A stretch of DNA of 64,000 bases from Escherichia coli (GTDB lineage: Bacteria > Pseudomonadota > Gammaproteobacteria > Enterobacterales > Enterobacteriaceae). The translations under genes were made by a program, and so were the position numbers. Every line of letters begins with the position of its first letter. Within the stretch, counting starts at the first letter, position 1. The stretch lies in assembly GCF_016026235.1 (NCBI RefSeq), contig NZ_CP065613.1; one strand, given 5' to 3'. Positions 1-61,647 of the stretch are shown here, piece after piece. The notes under the pieces were generated by a model. The model ran no database searches and had not been told where the DNA came from. It saw nothing but the letters and a program-made list of their open reading frames with translations.

Positions 1-1743
1 GCCACCAGCGGCAGTATTTTTTCCAGCTACACCTTTACTGGCGTGCAACTCGCTTCCGACGATAATATGTTGCCAAACAGCCAGCGCGGATTTGCCCCAA
101 CGGTACGCGGTATCGCAAACAGTAGTGCAATCGTGACTATCAGGCAAAATGGTTATGTGATCTATCAAAGCAACGTGCCAGCGGGTGCCTTTGAAATTAA
201 CGATCTCTACCCCTCTTCCAACAGCGGCGATTTAGAAGTCACGATTGAAGAAAGTGACGGTACGCAACGTCGCTTTATCCAGCCTTATTCTTCATTACCC
301 ATGATGCAGCGACCTGGGCATCTAAAATATAGCGCGACCGCTGGACGCTATCGCGCTGATGCAAACAGTGATAGCAAAGAACCCGAATTTGCTGAAGCCA
401 CGGCAATATATGGTTTGAATAATACTTTTACGCTGTATGGCGGCCTGCTCGGTTCTGAAGATTATTATGCGCTGGGGATCGGTATCGGCGGCACACTTGG
501 CGCACTGGGCGCGTTGTCGATGGATATCAACAGAGCTGACACCCAATTCGATAACCAGCACTCTTTTCATGGCTATCAATGGCGTACGCAGTACATCAAA
601 GATATCCCGGAAACCAACACCAATATCGCTGTCAGCTACTATCGCTATACCAACGATGGCTATTTTAGTTTTGATGAAGCCAATACCCGCAATTGGGACT
701 ATAACAGTCGCCAAAAAAGTGAAATTCAATTCAACATCAGCCAGACAATATTTGATGGGGTAAGTCTGTATGCCTCCGGTTCACAGCAAGACTATTGGGG
801 CAATAACGAGAAAAACAGGAATATCTCTGTTGGGGTTTCCGGCCAGCAATGGGGAATTGGTTACAGCCTGAATTATCAATACAGCCGCTACACTGATCAA
901 AATAATGACCGCGCACTCTCTTTGAATCTCAGTATTCCGTTAGAACGCTGGTTACCGCGTAGCCGGGTTTCCTATCAGATGACCAGCCAGAAAGATCGCC
1001 CAACCCAACATGAAATGCGTCTTGATGGCTCACTGCTGGATGATGGTCGCCTGAGCTATAGCCTGGAACAAAGTCTGGATGACGATAACAACCATAACAG
1101 TAGCCTGAACGCCAGTTACCGTTCACCTTATGGAACCTTCAGTGCCGGATACAGTTACGGTAATGACAGCAGCCAATACAATTACGGCGTTACCGGCGGC
1201 GTGGTTATCCATCCTCATGGCGTGACGCTCTCGCAATATCTGGGCAACGCTTTTGCGCTTATCGATGCTAACGGGGCATCTGGCGTGAGGATACAAAACT
1301 ATCCGGGGATTGCTACCGATCCCTTTGGCTATGCAGTGGTTCCTTATCTCACAACTTATCAGGAAAACCGTCTCTCGGTAGATACTACGCAGCTGCCCGA
1401 TAACGTCGATCTTGAACAAACAACACAGTTTGTGGTGCCCAACAGAGGTGCAATGGTAGCGGCGCGTTTCAACGCCAATATCGGTTATCGCGTACTTGTT
1501 ACAGTCAGCGATCGCAACGGTAAACCGTTGCCCTTTGGCGCTCTTGCCAGCAACGATGATACGGGGCAACAAAGTATCGTCGATGAGGGCGGCATACTAT
1601 ATCTCTCTGGGATATCGAGTAAATCACAAAGCTGGACTGTACGCTGGGGAAATCAGGCAGATCAACAATGTCAGTTTGCTTTTAGTACACCGGGTTCAGA
1701 ACCAACAACCTCTGTATTACAAGGCACAGCGCAGTGCCATTAA
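1..1743 (+). CDS. yraJ: Fimbrial outer-membrane usher, C-terminal part (5' end cut by window edge)
   Basis: Open frame runs from the window edge to the stop at 1743; translation is usher-like and is followed by a fimbrial subunit gene. Symbol assigned from K-12 synteny. Confidence 0.85.
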   Translation, partial: ATSGSIFSSYTFTGVQLASDDNMLPNSQRGFAPTVRGIANSSAIVTIRQNGYVIYQSNVPAGAFEINDLYPSSNSGDLEVTIEESDGTQRRFIQPYSSLPMMQRPGHLKYSATAGRYRADANSDSKEPEFAEATAIYGLNNTFTLYGGLLGSEDYYALGIGIGGTLGALGALSMDINRADTQFDNQHSFHGYQWRTQYIKDIPETNTNIAVSYYRYTNDGYFSFDEANTRNWDYNSRQKSEIQFNISQTIFDGVSLYASGSQQDYWGNNEKNRNISVGVSGQQWGIGYSLNYQYSRYTDQNNDRALSLNLSIPLERWLPRSRVSYQMTSQKDRPTQHEMRLDGSLLDDGRLSYSLEQSLDDDNNHNSSLNASYRSPYGTFSAGYSYGNDSSQYNYGVTGGVVIHPHGVTLSQYLGNAFALIDANGASGVRIQNYPGIATDPFGYAVVPYLTTYQENRLSVDTTQLPDNVDLEQTTQFVVPNRGAMVAARFNANIGYRVLVTVSDRNGKPLPFGALASNDDTGQQSIVDEGGILYLSGISSKSQSWTVRWGNQADQQCQFAFSTPGSEPTTSVLQGTAQCH

Positions 1744-1753
1744 GGATAAAAAA

Positions 1754-2845
1754 ATGAAAAGAGCGCCTCTTATAACAGGACTTTTGTTGATATCCACATC
1801 CTGCGCTTATGCCTCCTCAGGAGGGTGTGGAGCCGACAGCACTAGCGGTGCGACAAATTACAGCAGTGTGGTTGATGATGTTACGGTGAACCAGACAGAT
1901 AACGTGACAGGACGGGAGTTTACCTCTGCAACGCTAAGTAGCACTAACTGGCAATACGCCTGTTCCTGCTCTGCGGGTAAGGCAGTTAAACTTGTCTATA
2001 TGGTCAGCCCCGTACTTACCACCACTGGACATCAGACAGGATATTACAAACTCAATGACAGCCTGGATATTAAAACCACATTACAGGCAAACGACATTCC
2101 AGGACTCACAACCGACCAGGTTGTCTCTGTTAACACCCAATTCACACAGATAAAAAGCAGCACCGTATATTCTGCTGCAACCCAAACGGGTGTTTGCCAG
2201 GGTGACACGTCTCGTTATGGACCCGTTAATATTGGTGCAAATACCACCTTTACCCTGTATGTCACCAAGCCATTTCTCGGCTCGATGACCATTCCGAAAA
2301 CGGATATTGCCGTCATTAAAGGCGCGTGGGTCGATGGAATGGGAAGCCCGTCTACAGGTGACTTCCATGATTTAGTCAAGTTATCGATTCAGGGAAATCT
2401 CACCGCCCCACAGTCGTGCAAAATTAATCAGGGCGATGTTATTAAGGTTAATTTTGGATTCATCAATGGTCAGAAGTTTACCACCCGCAATGCCATGCCA
2501 GACGGTTTTACTCCAGTAGACTTTGATATCACTTATGACTGTGGTGATACTTCAAAGATTAAAAACTCGTTGCAAATGCGCATCGACGGTACAACTGGGG
2601 TAGTAGACCAGTACAACCTGGTCGCCAGGCGAAGAAGTTCAGACAATGTGCCCGATGTCGGTATTCGTATTGAAAATCTCGGCGGCGGAGTTGCAAATAT
2701 TCCTTTTCAGAACGGTATCCTTCCCGTTGATCCTTCCGGGCATGGCACCGTCAATATGCGCGCCTGGCCAGTTAATCTGGTCGGTGGTGAGCTGGAAACA
2801 GGAAAATTTCAGGGCACAGCCACCATTACCGTCATCGTGCGGTAA
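1754..2845 (+). CDS. yraK: Fimbrial adhesin-like subunit
   Basis: ATG at 1754 gives 363 aa with signal peptide MKRAPLITGLLLISTSCAYA, directly downstream of the usher. The ORF-track start at 1496 is rejected because it overlaps the usher. Confidence 0.8.
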   Translation: MKRAPLITGLLLISTSCAYASSGGCGADSTSGATNYSSVVDDVTVNQTDNVTGREFTSATLSSTNWQYACSCSAGKAVKLVYMVSPVLTTTGHQTGYYKLNDSLDIKTTLQANDIPGLTTDQVVSVNTQFTQIKSSTVYSAATQTGVCQGDTSRYGPVNIGANTTFTLYVTKPFLGSMTIPKTDIAVIKGAWVDGMGSPSTGDFHDLVKLSIQGNLTAPQSCKINQGDVIKVNFGFINGQKFTTRNAMPDGFTPVDFDITYDCGDTSKIKNSLQMRIDGTTGVVDQYNLVARRRSSDNVPDVGIRIENLGGGVANIPFQNGILPVDPSGHGTVNMRAWPVNLVGGELETGKFQGTATITVIVR

Positions 2846-2887
2846 AAGAAGACGTTGCGTTTTGATTAACGCAACGCTTCGGCACTG

Positions 2888-3748
2888 TTACTCCTGCTGC
2901 TCCAGCGCATACTTATACAGCGCATTTTTCTTCACGCCGTGAATTTCTGCGGCCAGCGCCGCCGCTTTTTTCAGCGGCAGTTCTGCCTGTAGCAGAGCCA
3001 GCGTGCGCAGGGCATCAGCAGGCAGGTCTTCTTCCTGTGCTTTATGACCTTCGACAATCAGCACCATTTCGCCTTTGCGACGGTTTTCATCTTCCTTTAC
3101 CCACGCCAGCAGCTCGCCAACGGGCGCGCCGTGAATGGTTTCCCAGGTTTTGGTCAGCTCACGCGCCAGAACCACGTAGCGGGATTCGCCTAATACCGCA
3201 ACGATATCTTCCAGGCTATCTAACAGACGGTGGGTAGATTCATAAAAAATCAGCGTGCGCGGCTCCGCTTCAATGGCTTTTAGCGCATCACGGCGGCCTT
3301 TTGATTTGGCAGGTAAAAAGCCTTCGTAACAGAAACGGTCAGAGGGTAAACCCGCGGCGCTTAACGCAGTGATAGCAGCACACGGTCCGGGTAGCGGCAC
3401 CACACGAATCCCCGCTTCACGGCAGGTACGCACCAGATGGTAGCCAGGATCGTTAATTAGCGGCGTTCCGGCATCGGAAACCAGCGCAATGTTTTGCCCC
3501 TCTTGCAGCTTCGCCAGCAACGTTTCGGCTTTTTGTTGTTCGTTATGGTCGTGCAGCGCAAACAACCGGGCATTAATCCCAAAATGTTGCAGCAATAAAC
3601 CGGTGTGACGAGTATCCTCGGCGGCAATCAGATCAACGGCCTGTAATACCTCTAACGCACGCTGGGTGATATCCGCCAGATTGCCGATTGGCGTCGGTAC
3701 AATGTAAAGCTGGCCCTGAGAATTATCCGCCGATTGGTGTTGTTTCAT
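2888..3748 (-). CDS. rsmI: 16S rRNA (cytidine1402-2'-O)-methyltransferase
   Basis: 286 aa; N-terminus [15 protein letters not shown] is typical of the tetrapyrrole-methylase fold of RsmI. Confidence 0.9.
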
Positions 3749-3812
3749 TGTGTCGTCCGTATTGCCGATTTAATATTGAGCATTGCGTAAAAAAAATATC
3801 ACTGGATACATT

Positions 3813-5849
3813 ATGGTACCCTCAACATTTTCTCGTTTGAAAGCCGCGCGTTGTCTGCCTGTTGTTCTGGCAGCCCTGATTTTCGCCGGTTGTGGCACCC
3901 ATACTCCCGATCAGTCCACTGCTTATATGCAGGGCACGGCGCAGGCTGATTCTGCCTTTTATCTTCAGCAGATGCAGCAAAGCTCTGATGATACCAGGAT
4001 CAACTGGCAATTACTCGCCATTCGTGCACTGGTGAAAGAAGGTAAAACCGGGCAGGCGGTTGAGTTGTTTAACCAACTACCGCAAGAACTGAACGATTCT
4101 CAGCGTCGCGAGAAAACACTGCTGGCGGCAGAGATTAAACTGGCGCAGAAAGATTTTGCTGGCGCGCAAAACTTGCTGGCGAAAATCACACCTGCCGATT
4201 TAGAACAAAACCAGCAAGCGCGTTACTGGCAGGCAAAAATCGATGCCAGCCAGGGGCGTCCTTCCATTGATTTACTGCGCGCGTTAATTGCTCAGGAACC
4301 GCTGCTTGGCGCGAAAGAAAAACAGCAGAATATTGATGCCACCTGGCAGGCGCTCTCCTCCATGACTCAGGAACAAGCGAATACGCTGGTGATCAACGCC
4401 GACGAAAATATTCTGCAAGGCTGGCTGGATCTGCAGCGCGTCTGGTTTGATAACCGTAACGATCCCGACATGATGAAAGCCGGGATCGCCGACTGGCAGA
4501 AACGTTATCCGAACAACCCGGGCGCGAAAATGCTGCCAACGCAGTTGGTTAACGTAAAAGCGTTTAAACCAGCCTCGACCAACAAAATCGCCCTGCTGTT
4601 GCCACTGAATGGCCAGGCAGCGGTATTTGGTCGCACTATTCAGCAAGGCTTTGAAGCGGCGAAAAATATCGGCACTCAGCCAGTGGCAGCTCAGGTAGCT
4701 GCCGCACCTGCCGCAGACGTAGCAGAACAACCTCAACCGCAAACCGTGGATGGCGTTGCCAGCCCGGCACAAGCCTCGGTTAGCGATCTGACCGGTGAAC
4801 AGCCTGCAGCCCAGCCGGTGCCTGTAAGCGCCCCGGCGACAAGCTCCGCAGCGGTAATCGCACCCGCAAATCCATCCGCAGAGCTGAAAATCTACGATAC
4901 CTCATCACAACCACTTAGCCAGATCTTAAGCCAGGTTCAGCAGGATGGCGCGAGTATTGTGGTCGGTCCGTTGCTGAAAAATAACGTTGAAGAGTTGCTG
5001 AAGAGCAACACTCCGCTGAACGTACTGGCACTGAACCAGCCGGAGAATATCGAAAATCGCGTCAATATTTGTTACTTCGCGCTTTCACCGGAAGACGAAG
5101 CGCGCGATGCAGCGCGTCATATTCGTGACCAGGGTAAACAAGCGCCGCTGGTGCTGATCCCACGCAGTTCATTGGGCGATCGCGTAGCCAATGCGTTTGC
5201 ACAAGAGTGGCAAAAACTGGGCGGCGGCACCGTTCTGCAACAAAAATTTGGTTCCACCAGCGAATTACGCGCGGGTGTTAACGGCAGTTCTGGTATTGCT
5301 TTAACGGGTAGCCCGATTACTCTCAGAGCGACAACCGACTCCGGCATGACGACCAACAATCCAACACTGCAAACCACGCCAACCGATGACCAGTTCACCA
5401 ATAATGGCGGTCGTGTCGATGCGGTGTACATTGTGGCAACGCCGGGTGAAATCGCTTTTATTAAACCGATGATCGCCATGCGTAACGGTAGCCAGAGCGG
5501 TGCAACGCTGTACGCCAGCTCCCGCAGTGCGCAAGGGACCGCTGGCCCGGATTTCCGACTGGAGATGGAAGGCTTGCAGTACAGCGAAATCCCGATGCTG
5601 GCAGGCGGTAATCTACCGTTAATGCAGCAGGCACTCAGCGCGGTGAATAACGATTATTCACTGGCTCGCATGTATGCGATGGGCGTCGATGCCTGGTCGC
5701 TGGCAAATCATTTCTCACAAATGCGCCAGGTTCAGGGTTTTGAAATCAACGGTAATACCGGAAGCCTGACGGCTAACCCGGATTGCGTGATTAACAGGAA
5801 GTTATCATGGCTACAGTACCAACAAGGTCAGGTAGTCCCCGCCAGTTAA
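3813..5849 (+). CDS. lpoA: Outer-membrane lipoprotein activator of PBP1A
   Basis: 678 aa from ATG 3813; lipoprotein signal with lipobox (ALIFAGC) and a long Ala/Pro/Gln-rich linker. Confidence 0.9.
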
Positions 5850-13785: not shown

Positions 13786-13905
13786 TATGCTCGTCATACT
13801 TCAAGTTGCATGTGCTGCATCTGCATTCGTTCACCCCAGTCACTTACTTATGTAAGCTCCTGGGGATTCACTCTCTTGTCGCCTTCCTGCAACTCGAATT
13901 ATTTA
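13786..13905. repeat. ERIC (IRU) element
   Basis: The core 13828-13871, read in reverse complement, is gtgaatccccaggagcttacataagtaagtgactggggtgaacg, which matches the ERIC core consensus with one mismatch. Outer boundaries are approximate. Confidence 0.6.
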
Positions 13906-13985
13906 GAGCACAGCTCACTTTGTTAACAACTTTAACTACTCTTTAATGCAGTATTAAAGATTAATCGGTAACAAAGTGAGCTGTT

Positions 13986-21706: not shown

Positions 21707-21906
21707 TGTAATATCCTTTCTCTTTCTTAGACAGTACCTTACGGCACTGGTGTTAATACCCGATCTTCTGCGCATCCTCGCGACTAATGACAACCCTAAC
21801 CCAGCTCTATGTGGGTAAAGCCTCTCATTAGCCGCGCGAACCTCTGCAACGGAAGATCATTCATAGCAACAATACATTAGTTTCCAGTGAATTGCTGCCG
21901 TCAGCT

Positions 21907-21936
21907 TGAAAAAAGGGGCCACTCAGGCCCCCTTTT
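21907..21936 (-). terminator. rpsO rho-independent terminator
   Basis: Hairpin aaggggcc/ggcccctt with a T-run on the minus strand, just downstream of rpsO. Confidence 0.6.
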
Positions 21937-21952: not shown

Positions 21953-22318
<366 letters not shown>

Positions 22319-23793: not shown

Positions 23794-23867
23794 GGCCTGA
23801 TAAGACGCGCCAGCGTCACATCAGGCAATCCATGCCGGATGCGGCGTAAACGCCTTATCCCGCATGG
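23794..23867. repeat. REP/BIME element
   Basis: ggcctgataagacgcgccagcgtcacatcaggc and gccggatgcggcgtaaacgccttatcccgcatg between infB and rbfA. Confidence 0.5.
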
Positions 23868-28545: not shown

Positions 28546-28751
28546 GCCCACCCCCAAGACATAAAAAAAGGGCCTAAAGCCCAGTTATTCTGTAGTCAGA
28601 TAACAAAAAACCCCGATAAATCGGGGCTTTATATAACTGAACCCTATAACCGCAACTGCGGTCTGGAGCACTTTCCAGAAGGATTTTTTCAAATCCCACT
28701 ACGAAGGTCGAAGTCTTCACAGTATATTTGAAAAAGGACTCTAAGGGAAAG

Positions 28752-28828
<77 letters not shown>

Positions 28829-29160: not shown

Positions 29161-30519
<1,359 letters not shown>

Positions 30520-30537
30520 TATCATAGCTTTCGTGCT

Positions 30538-30563
30538 AAAGGCCGCAAATGCGGCCTTTTTTT
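30538..30563 (+). terminator. argG rho-independent terminator
   Basis: Hairpin ggccgca/tgcggcc followed by a run of 7 T. Confidence 0.6.
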
Positions 30564-30702
30564 ACGGCTAAGAGAATGTGACTGCGTTTAGGGGCCACCA
30601 TGTCCGAATTCGGAATTAAAGTAAAAGTTAAATGAAATAAAGTAAATTTCAGCGCATTCTATTTTTGCTTTATGTTTTTATGCTCAGTAAAAGGAATGAC
30701 CG

Positions 30703-31656
30703 ATGAATGGTAAATATTTTGTACGCCTCGCATTACATACTCTGAAATGCACTCAAAAAGATTTAGCAAGCCACTTAGGTGTTTCCTCAACACAAATTAG
30801 CAAGTGGAAAAAAGGGGAACACATGTCCGCTGATATGGAAAAAAAGTTCAGAAATATTACACAAATAGGAGATTATTCTCCTCAACTAGTTGAATGGACA
30901 GGCTCAGTCGCGAATGCTGAGAAATGGGATCGACTTATCCATTTTCTTGCTCGACGAGCTATGGACGATGCTGAAACGGGTTATATAACACAACTTCTTA
31001 CTGACGAAGATGGTTTTTTGGTTGAAGAAACAATTGATGTATTAAAGCGAATAGGTTTTCCTACACCTCTTTCCTTTCCTGAAGGACTTAATATTGACGA
31101 CGATAATGCTGATGAAGAAGAGGCTTTTTGGGAGATATTAGAGAGCAATGCTCATTGTTCTGTAATTAATGATATTTATCATGCTCTGAATGATGTTTAT
31201 GGTTTCTACATAGCATATGTTGATGAGTTGATTCAGGACGACGATTTAGATGTCTATTCAAGCGAAGCCATCAATATTCAGAGTTCATTGATATCACTTG
31301 CTGCATGCAAAATTGAAATTGATACTCCTGTTGCGTCAAACTTTAAAGAATTTCGTTATAGAGTTAAAAAAGACTACGAAAATTGGTTGAATCAACTCAA
31401 GATGATGGCATTCAGGGCGGGAATTCCGTTAAGAGCCGAACTTCTGGAAATGGTTTATAACACCGCTGACCAACTTAGCGTTGCAGCAGAAGCCGAACGT
31501 TTCGATTTCAATAAATCTCGCATTCATCCAGATATATACATGAACGAGATCCTTACTGGCATGAGAATAATTCACCAAGTGCTTCCGGTAATAATGCAAA
31601 AGTTAGAAATTACAGATTTCAAACTAGATGAAACAGATTTATGCCTGGGTAAATAG
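30703..31656 (+). CDS. Uncharacterised 317-aa protein with N-terminal XRE-type HTH and acidic C-terminal domain of unknown function (replaces yhbX of K-12 at this locus)
   Basis: Only long frame in a roughly 1.1-kb AT-rich block; RBS aagga lies 8 nt upstream of the ATG. Residues about 10-45 (LKCTQKDLASHLGVSSTQISKWKKGEH) fit the Cro/C1 HTH pattern. I recognise no motif in the remainder. Confidence 0.6.
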   Translation: MNGKYFVRLALHTLKCTQKDLASHLGVSSTQISKWKKGEHMSADMEKKFRNITQIGDYSPQLVEWTGSVANAEKWDRLIHFLARRAMDDAETGYITQLLTDEDGFLVEETIDVLKRIGFPTPLSFPEGLNIDDDNADEEEAFWEILESNAHCSVINDIYHALNDVYGFYIAYVDELIQDDDLDVYSSEAINIQSSLISLAACKIEIDTPVASNFKEFRYRVKKDYENWLNQLKMMAFRAGIPLRAELLEMVYNTADQLSVAAEAERFDFNKSRIHPDIYMNEILTGMRIIHQVLPVIMQKLEITDFKLDETDLCLGK

Positions 31657-31692
31657 TTATCAAATTAAGAATACTTAACCTGGCTTATAAAA

Positions 31693-31730: not shown

Positions 31731-31817
31731 TGGTACCGAGGACGGGACTTGAACCCGTAAGCCCTATTGGGCACTACCACCTCAAGGTAGCGTGTCTACC
31801 AATTCCACCACCTCGGC
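31731..31817 (-). tRNA. leuU: tRNA-Leu (anticodon GAG)
   Basis: The reverse complement reads GCCGAGGTGGTGGAATTGGTAGACACGCTACCTTGAGGTGGTAGTGCCCAATAGGGCTTACGGGTTCAAGTCCCGTCCTCGGTACCA, an 87-nt class II tRNA. Confidence 0.9.
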
Positions 31818-38374: not shown

Positions 38375-38621
38375 TTGTTATACCTCTTGAATATTCCTGA
38401 TGGGGCAAGTCTTCACCCACCCCGGCTGTTCGGCCTGCCCGGCATAACTCCTCACCGGGACCAGAAGCAAAAAAATACCGACCCAGGTACAAGTCCCAGG
38501 TCAGCTACAATTCACATTTTGATAGTCATTTTACCCTGAAGTTCCCGAAGGGTCATCGTTTACTTTATAGGGCGTTGCGCCGTAGTATGACGGCTCGATT
38601 CCAGGTTGTTAGCGCGAGATT

Positions 38622-40082: not shown

Positions 40083-40100
40083 TAATGCCAGTCAGTTAAG
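40083..40100. repeat. IS4 terminal inverted repeat, left
   Basis: taatgccagtcagttaag, 16 of 18 matches to the reverse complement of 41490-41507. Confidence 0.85.
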
Positions 40101-41423
40101 CAACTGACTGGCTCTTTTTCGGGGCTGTGGGGTATTTCCAGGGCCTCTCCTTTACCACTCTCGGGAAGGCCCTTCCCCTTCTCGTCGGTAATTTCACAAG
40201 TTGTCCCATACTTGCAAGATCGCGCATCAGCTCCGGTATACGTCCCGGTGAAGCGCCCTGCAATGTCATCAGCATTCTCATCACCATTCCGCATGATTCT
40301 GAGAAACTCAGTTGATTCGGCCAGTAACCTTTCAGATGTTCCGCCATTTTAATCATCTGATATCTCACCAGATTATAAGCCAGTAAGACACCCCACAGCT
40401 CTTGCTCCACAAGCTCCGGCTTTTTACTTCTCAGCGTCAGCCTGCTCAGTTGCATCGTCTGTTTTATCTCCCTGTATCCCAGTTCGATTTCCCAGCGATG
40501 ACTGTACAGATCCGCCATTTCTCCTCCGGGGAAGCGCATGGCGTCCGTCATCGACGTCAGCAGATGGCAGACTTTTCCTTTGCGCGTCACGGTCAGCAGG
40601 CGGGCTGTCACTTCATTTCCCAGTCCCGGCCACTTTTTTCGTGCCTGCGGGCTGGTTTTCAGCTTCACCAGATGATCGCCTTTACCCAGTTTTCTGAGCT
40701 CTTCATATTGCGCTCCCTTTCTGAGAGGTATCATCCAGTGGCGGTGTTCTCCCGCCAGGCTCCAGGCATTTAACAGTCCCAGTGAGTAATAACCTTTATC
40801 CATTAACGTCAGAGTGTTATCGCCGGTTTGTTCTATAAGTTGCTCAGCAAGCTCATTTTCGCTGTTCTTCATCGTGCCGAAGGCTGCAGCCGTCAGCAGA
40901 TGGCTGGTCAGTTCCATCTGGCAGACCATTTTGACCTGCGGGTAGAGCGCCGGGTTCCCGGCATGTGTCTGGCGGGGAAGGCTGCATCGTTCTCTGGTGT
41001 ATCCGGTGTGCGCCAGAACACACCATCGATGGCCAGCAGGGTCAGGCCGCACCAGTGCGGATGCGGCGTGGCGTTATGCCAGAGCTGCGCTGTTTTCGTG
41101 AACACGCGGCGGACAGCCTCACTTCCCAGGCGCTGGCGGGCCTGAATAACGGCACTGGGGGCAACGAAGGGGCGATTGCCCGGCAGCATGATGTCCAGGC
41201 GATTCACAATCTGGTGAAGAGGTTCTTTACGCTCAAGCGCCATGCCAACAATACACCAGACCATCATTTCGAGGGGAAGACGGCGCTTGCGTAGCGTTAC
41301 AGTACCTGATTCGGCAAGGCAACGAGAGATGAGTTCGGGGTCGAGGTAATCCCCCAGAGAAGTCAGTGGGTTACGCAGAGAATCGTAACGGGATACCAGA
41401 TCAAGAGCCTGTCCAATGTGCAT
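40096..41423 (-). pseudogene. insG: IS4 transposase interrupted by a -1 frameshift
   Basis: Two overlapping minus-strand ORFs (40908-41441 and 40096-41052) together encode 150 + 292 = 442 aa of one continuous transposase. The frame changes at a G4 run, 40974-40977. Confidence 0.8.
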
Positions 41424-41489
41424 AAAAAAATCCGGAAACAAGTGAGCGTTTCCGGATTCTTACACAGCCACTGGATCGGTCAACTGATC

Positions 41490-41507
41490 CTTAACTGATC
41501 GGCATTA
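41490..41507. repeat. IS4 terminal inverted repeat, right
   Basis: cttaactgatcggcatta. Confidence 0.85.
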
Positions 41508-41520
41508 CGGCACATGGCCG
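41508..41520. repeat. IS4 target-site duplication, right copy
   Basis: cggcacatggccg. Confidence 0.85.
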
Positions 41521-41532
41521 GGGTTTTGCTGA

Positions 41533-61526: not shown

Positions 61527-61647
61527 CGTGCGGCCTGAAAAACAGTGCTGTGCCCTTGTAACTCATCATAATAATTTACGGCGCAGCCAAGATTTCCCTG
61601 GTGTTGGCGCAGTATTCGCGCACCCCGGTCTAGCCGGGGTCATTTTT
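61527..61647 (+). ncRNA. arcZ: Hfq-dependent small RNA ArcZ
   Basis: GTGCGGCCTGAAAAACAGTGCTGTGCCC...CACCCCGGTCTAGCCGGGGTCATTTTTT matches the ArcZ sequence as I remember it; its terminator overlaps the arcB stop on the opposite strand. Confidence 0.85.

Follow-up and report, generated by a model that had tools for sequence, protein, structure and literature searches.

Assignment of an Escherichia coli usher-adhesin gene pair to the distal part of the yraHIJK chaperone-usher fimbrial operon

When a stretch of DNA opens in the midst of a fimbrial operon, the question arises which operon this is and whether the visible genes belong to a complete assembly system or to the remnant of one. This question is posed by positions 1 to 2845 of the window, that is, the whole stretch of 64,000 nucleotides of E. 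coli DNA that was analysed, which a sequence-only reading had interpreted as the tail of a cryptic chaperone-usher operon. The segment almost certainly belongs to the chromosomal chaperone-usher fimbrial operon yraHIJK of E. coli, of which it comprises the distal part with the last 580 codons of yraJ and the whole of yraK. Sequence analysis of the window and of complete genomes established that both reading frames are intact, as well as their domain content, synteny and distribution among strains. The yraHIJK operon is one of 12 chaperone-usher operons in strain MG1655 (PMC8174762), and yra genes are among the adhesin genes catalogued for E. coli (PMC8174762, PMC3559732, PMC11184843).

Identity of the locus and its two genes

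In a megablast search among 5,426 complete E. coli genomes, strain FDAARGOS_943, the nearest genome among the matches listed, was 99.9% identical over 2,900 nt, and every one of these listed matches carries the annotation yraJ, yraK and rsmI. Identity of the DNA to K-12 amounts to 99.1-99.3% (99.1% over 4 kb, with rsmI and lpoA downstream), and the entire window is collinear with K-12 positions 3,289,588-3,353,049, from yraJ to arcB, at 98.8-99.3% identity except for three indel or replacement sites. This near-identity, together with the conserved position between agaI and rsmI, identifies the genes as orthologues of yraJ and yraK of the K-12 Yra fimbriae. The counterpart in K-12 MG1655 is yraHIJK (b3142-b3145): the genes and their chromosomal site agree, with the convergent rsmI lying beyond yraK, and only allelic differences from the window are found, those of YraK being clustered in the N-terminal domain. 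The yraJ-yraK pair is an already catalogued locus that differs from K-12 in alleles only. The coordinates of all features are compiled in Table 1.

Table 1. Features of the distal yraHIJK operon and the adjoining gap, in window coordinates
Feature	Position	Strand	Basis
yraJ, 3' 69% (codons 259-838 and stop), outer-membrane fimbrial usher	1..1743	+	open frame, Pfam, identity to annotated YraJ
Likely Shine-Dalgarno sequence AAGGA of yraK (function inferred)	1742..1746	+	read from sequence
yraK, complete, 363 aa and stop, predicted two-domain fimbrial tip adhesin	1754..2845	+	ORF, annotation, homology, model
Predicted Sec signal peptide of YraK, MKRAPLITGLLLISTSCAYA, putative cleavage after AYA	1754..1813	+	sequence pattern
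YraK N-terminal domain (about residues 21-210), predicted receptor-binding (lectin)	1814..2383	+	LpfD alignment, all-beta model
YraK C-terminal pilin domain (residues 211-362)	2384..2839	+	Pfam PF00419
G+C-rich hairpin, likely shared terminator of yraK and rsmI (function inferred)	2848..2880		folding and terminator scan

No stop codon interrupts frame +1 before the TAA at 1741-1743, and 580 amino acids are encoded from base 1 onwards, while the 5' 774 nt of yraJ fall outside the window, the first base of which corresponds to codon 259. The encoded fragment shows 0 amino acid differences from residues 259-838 of YraJ of FDAARGOS_943, a protein of 838 aa, and deviates from K-12 at 5 of 580 residues. 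It matches the Pfam families PF00577 Usher (E 3.5e-194, profile positions 56-549 of 549) and PF13953 PapC_C (E 2.1e-19), and contains both the beta-barrel/plug region and the C-terminal domain of an outer-membrane usher. The N-terminal domain, which binds chaperone-subunit complexes, sits before window base 1 and forms part of the complete 838-aa protein in FDAARGOS_943 as well as in K-12. The former designation 'usher C-terminus' is correct in that a part of the usher is present, but understates its extent, since the piece constitutes 69% of the protein and includes part of the barrel, plug and C-terminal domains. In a sequence search, FimD emerged as the closest solved relative of the fragment (E 1.2e-128), and PapC was also matched. 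The best NCBIfam matches are ushers of the LpfC/FimD type, all of which remain under their equivalog cut-offs; such matches would presumably fit the gamma-1 clade for YraJ. Several antisense or off-frame ORFs within yraJ and yraK, for instance those at 322..729 (135 aa) and 1123..1572 (149 aa) on the minus strand, were dismissed as by-products inside strongly supported genes.

The start codon of yraK, ATG at 1754, lies ten bases past the yraJ stop, and its TAA occupies 2843-2845, which coincides exactly with the end of the fimbrial segment at 2845 as given by the sequence-only reading. Length and position equal those of the annotated yraK in FDAARGOS_943 and K-12, and the gene bears this name in thousands of genomes. 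The likely Shine-Dalgarno sequence overlaps the yraJ stop codon and precedes the ATG by 7 nt. A longer ORF starting with TTG (1496..2845, 449 aa) was considered as yraK and rejected because it overlaps yraJ by 248 nt, while the ATG at 1754 features the putative Shine-Dalgarno sequence, the predicted signal peptide and the annotated 363-aa product. A database entry of 429 aa, P0002, resembles the same kind of over-extended YraK start. Residues 1-17 exhibit pLDDT values below 50 in the AlphaFold2 model. A scan for an internal yraK promoter yielded one promoter-like site where chance alone would give 1.7, and hence no evidence for such a promoter.

The genes yraK and rsmI (2888-3748, minus strand) are convergent and separated by a spacer of 42 nt. 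The hairpin in this gap has a minimum free energy of -18.4 kcal/mol and a z-score of -4.3, with none of 200 shuffled sequences being as stable. The terminator scan places it on the minus strand, i.e. on the rsmI side, where it is followed by a T-rich tail, while the T run on the plus strand is weak. Beyond rsmI, the genes lpoA, yraN, diaA and dolP follow as in K-12.

Completeness of the operon and variation between strains

In both FDAARGOS_943 and K-12 MG1655 the gene order is agaI, a spacer of approximately 400 nt, yraH, yraI, yraJ, yraK and the convergent rsmI, all of these genes being annotated as intact. The gene for the fimbrial subunit, yraH (585 nt), and the chaperone gene yraI (696 nt) are located directly upstream of yraJ, so that the expectation of a chaperone and a major subunit upstream of the window is borne out in the nearest genome, which is 99.9% identical, and in K-12. 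A head query, composed of the agaI-yraH spacer, yraH, yraI and the 5' end of yraJ, was found in 3,468 complete E. coli genomes (3,261 at a coverage of at least 80%), and the operon tail in 3,521 of 5,426 (3,448 at a coverage of at least 80%). These counts imply that a tail without a head is rare. As judged from its relatives, the window's own genome very probably carries intact versions of yraH, yraI and the yraJ 5' end.

A remnant in this particular strain, in which the yraJ/yraK part is intact but yraH, yraI or the yraJ 5' end has been deleted or disrupted and no fimbria would be formed, is quite unlikely. The notion draws on the location of precisely these segments outside the window, on the slightly smaller number of genomes with the head than with the tail, and on instances of decay elsewhere: strain H89 carries an IS1 insertion and has lost part of the head, strain H46 contains usher fragments, and in Shigella flexneri yraH as well as yraJ are pseudogenes (PMC6854044). 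Nevertheless, the complete and intact operon occurs both in the nearest genome, at 99.9% identity over the part within the window, and in K-12, about 95-98% of the genomes that carry the tail also carry the head, and neither a stop nor a frameshift interrupts the 580 and 363 codons that are visible. A complete operon is therefore the preferred reading.

Variation of the locus between strains, which had likewise been anticipated, takes the form of both absence and disruption. The yra genes are carried by about 65% of the 5,426 complete E. coli genomes and are absent from about 35%. A 4-kb query reaching into rsmI and lpoA was matched by 5,424 of the 5,426 genomes, only 3,468 of which cover the yra part, and in the sampled genomes devoid of yra the match was limited to window positions 2893-4000. 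In strain 550, the one genome of this kind that was examined, agaI abuts rsmI across a gap of 49 nt that holds no further gene, and the 3' ends of both genes differ slightly (768 versus 756 nt for agaI, 864 versus 861 nt for rsmI). In an alignment of the yra-containing and yra-free junctions, homology breaks within the 3' ends of agaI and rsmI.

In genomes that possess the operon, the adhesin gene itself is subject to variation. YraK of the window differs by 1 amino acid from that of FDAARGOS_943 and by 3 of 363 residues from that of K-12 (Q129R, S135N, S136N), all three in the N-terminal domain. Strain 122, an O157:H7-like isolate from cattle, encodes a 244-aa form generated by an in-frame deletion of residues 108-226, which removes half of the N-terminal domain along with the start of the pilin domain. 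In other strains, IS1 or IS1203 is inserted in yraK.

YraK and its fimbrial relatives

Residues 211-362 of YraK match the Pfam family PF00419 Fimbrial (E 1.4e-30), identifying a subunit of Ig-like pilin fold, while the Pfam search returned no family for the preceding N-terminal portion of about 190 residues. The homology of the two proteins to their usher and fimbrial families is strong and greatly exceeds what chance would produce. The only solved sequence relative is LpfD (5AFO; E 8.8e-12), the alignment of which spans residues 45-360 and therefore crosses both domains. Homologues with 36-54% identity are found in Citrobacter, Salmonella, Klebsiella, Kluyvera, Escherichia whittamii and Ewingella. 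An alignment of 29 homologues exhibits conserved cysteines and a conserved core; from this alignment an AlphaFold2 model was built, which is all-beta with a mean pLDDT of 82.4. When compared with the PDB by Foldseek, the full-length model retrieved LpfD at the top (E 5.4e-20), followed by CupB6, FimH, PapG and CfaE. The C-terminal half matched FimA, FimG and PapA with target-normalised TM-scores of 0.6-0.73, and the N-terminal half gave partial matches to F17-G lectin domains. Since two-domain adhesins top this list, the assignment of YraK as an adhesin-like terminal subunit is well supported structurally. In conjunction with the position of yraK as the last operon gene before the convergent rsmI, the modelled combination of a predicted receptor-binding N-terminal domain and a C-terminal pilin domain places YraK with the two-domain tip adhesins of the FimH/LpfD/PapG type. 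The usher and the terminal adhesin-like subunit proposed from the sequence can therefore be named as YraJ and YraK on the basis of annotation, Pfam, the relative LpfD and the fold of YraK.

It is very unlikely that YraK is instead a structural or minor subunit, or an initiator of assembly, whose large N-terminal domain is devoid of lectin function. In favour of such a role it may be stated that no ligand of YraK is known, that the N-terminal domain gave no match to a Pfam family, that identity to LpfD in the structural alignment is only about 19%, and that TM-scores for the whole protein are modest (0.49), the latter in part because the orientation of the domains differs. On the other hand, known tip adhesins share with YraK its size, its place at the end of the operon and its construction from two domains; every top structural match over the full length is an adhesin, and the partial ones are F17-G lectin domains. 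Moreover, cysteines and core are conserved in the homologues of Citrobacter, Salmonella and Klebsiella, and the K-12 annotation reads 'putative fimbrial adhesin'. The tip adhesin thus remains the favoured role.

Given this predicted role, the residues Q129, S135 and S136 (R, N and N in K-12), which lie in the predicted receptor-binding domain, could conceivably reflect selection on the specificity or affinity of binding. Together with the recurrent inactivation of yraK in some lineages, through the O157:H7-type in-frame deletion and the IS insertions, these clustered substitutions would then mark YraK as an adhesin in use. Selection of this kind is known for FimH alleles. For YraK, it is regarded as a highly improbable explanation; if it held, the protein would be used and selected in the host and would not be truly silent.

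Among known fimbriae, the long polar fimbriae resemble Yra in that LpfC (E 1.8e-161) is the best NCBIfam match of the usher and LpfD (E 2.9e-20) that of the adhesin. LpfD also shares the build of YraK, as deduced for the latter from the model, with a lectin domain joined to a pilin domain. The scores are nonetheless under the equivalog cut-offs, with 539 versus 1271 bits for LpfC and 73 versus 412 bits for LpfD, and the matches of YraK, which comprise adhesins of the LpfD/StgD/BcfD/FimH type, all fall far below theirs, from which it follows that Yra, though related, constitutes a type of its own. In addition, Yra is unlike Lpf in having four genes, in residing at a different locus and in the low identity between the two adhesins. 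Hence, Yra is a fimbrial type distinct from Lpf. Type 1 fimbriae resemble Yra in that FimD is closest to the usher fragment among solved structures and the structural matches of YraK include FimH. Unlike type 1, however, the annotated Yra locus of FDAARGOS_943 and K-12 comprises neither FimF/FimG-like adaptor genes nor an invertible switch with fimB and fimE.

Assembly, expression and biological meaning

The chaperone-usher mechanism is established for type 1 and P pili, and the assembly mechanism of type 1 fimbriae is assumed to be common to Yra. By analogy, the Yra subunits would cross the inner membrane via the Sec system and would be captured in the periplasm by the chaperone YraI, which would complete their incomplete Ig-like fold. 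The complex of YraI and YraK would be the first to engage the pore of YraJ, and YraK would therefore end at the tip of the fibre. Subsequently, the fibre would grow at its base as YraH subunits are incorporated by donor-strand exchange, and the N-terminal domain of YraK may bind a putative receptor.

The description of the operon as cryptic in laboratory conditions stems from the literature. According to PMC3559732, which cites Korea et al. 2010, many chaperone-usher operons of commensal E. coli are H-NS-repressed and cryptic, and yraHIJK is reported in this sense to be silent under laboratory conditions, in K-12 in an H-NS-dependent manner. In PMC12711010, which apparently cites the same study by Korea et al., the yra operon in K-12 is stated to promote adhesion to bladder cells. 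One transcriptome study of STEC found yraHIJ to be expressed more highly in strains obtained from cases of haemolytic uraemic syndrome (HUS) (PMC6033998), so that the silence is conditional rather than absolute. In the reference genome, the G+C content is 30% in the agaI-yraH spacer, 43-50% in the body of the operon and 52-56% in the downstream housekeeping genes. The low value of the spacer is compatible with regulatory DNA bound by H-NS, to which the operon may be linked.

Taken together, the importance of the yra locus is small beyond its correct annotation. Models of outcome in O157:H7 have flagged yraK variation as a predictor (PMC12711010), and the presence, absence or disruption of the yra genes constitutes a strain marker.

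Insertions and replacements relative to K-12

Between dacB and obgE, an insertion of about 1.45 kb relative to K-12 (window 40083-41529) is an IS4 element, the transposase of which is divided over two overlapping ORFs on the minus strand and, judging by this split, is probably frameshifted. The site is unoccupied in K-12 as well as in FDAARGOS_943, the genome nearest to that of the window. Matches in E. coli number 4,379 records; the 8 with the highest scores are IS4 copies at 98-99% identity, and the two among these 8 for which a neighbouring gene is displayed are both located at other sites.

In the argG-leuU interval, unrelated DNA (window 30512-31688) takes the place of K-12 yhbX, a gene on the minus strand for a putative hydrolase. 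The replacing DNA contains an ORF of 317 amino acids, the N-terminus of which weakly matches the helix-turn-helix family HTH_19 (E 1.7e-5, short of the cut-off), and besides this match no family was hit by the predicted protein. FDAARGOS_943 carries a gene of equal length at the equivalent position, annotated as 'helix-turn-helix domain-containing protein'. Furthermore, the spacer between ubiV and yhbW (window 13793-13911) contains approximately 119 nt that are extra relative to K-12. This sequence, which we take to resemble an ERIC/IRU intergenic repeat, lies in DNA that carries no annotation, and E. coli genomes have a median of 5 copies of it. All RNA features expected for this chromosomal region were found in the window and are compiled below together with the ORFs.

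Coordinates of RNA features and of ORFs at the dacB-obgE and argG-leuU sites
Feature	Window position	Strand
SraG	21765-21936	
S15 leader	22166-22280	
naRNA4	23794-23864	
rimP leader	28563-28663	
tRNA-Met (metY)	28752-28828	
ORF, 317 aa, within DNA replacing yhbX	30703..31656	plus
tRNA-Leu (leuU)	31731-31817	
greA leader	38470-38591	
IS4 transposase ORF, DDE_Tnp_1	40096..41052	minus
IS4 transposase ORF, Nterm_IS4	40908..41441	minus
ArcZ	61528-61635	

Variation in the adhesin gene yraK

In the O157:H7-like E. coli strain 122 (locus L004, 5754-6488), yraK has suffered an in-frame deletion of 357 nt covering residues 108-226. The protein that is left, 244 amino acids long, has lost one half of its predicted receptor-binding domain along with the beginning of the pilin domain. 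In other O157 strains, IS1203 or IS1 resides inside yraK. Two matches from the protein database bear unexpected labels: a YraK cluster assigned to Salmonella enterica (P0004) is 94% identical to YraK of the window, and a protein of 229 amino acids termed 'putative prophage side tail fiber protein' (P0013) is 98% identical over 47% of YraK. Mislabelling of samples or chimeric gene calls may explain these labels, as may a genuine transfer of the gene.

Absence and uneven divergence of the yra operon

In strain 550, the one yra-negative genome examined (locus L003, 8176-9856), agaI and rsmI are separated by 49 nt, and both genes possess changed 3' ends, agaI measuring 768 nt versus 756 nt and rsmI 864 nt versus 861 nt in yra-positive strains. 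In a single alignment with yra-positive sequence (FDAARGOS_943 locus L001, 3683-4438, and window 2846-2900), homology ends within the ends of agaI and rsmI.

Where the operon is present, its head, comprising the spacer, yraH, yraI and the 5' part of yraJ (L001 4439-7000), has diverged between strains much more than its tail (window 1-2900). Identity to the head of FDAARGOS_943 is 99% or higher in only 27 genomes, and the sampled K-12-derived laboratory strains reach about 97-98%, whereas the tail attains at least 99% identity in 2,169 genomes, with K-12 at 99.1%. This sequence contrast suggests that the operon is a mosaic produced by recombination, or that the major subunit and the regulatory region evolve faster.
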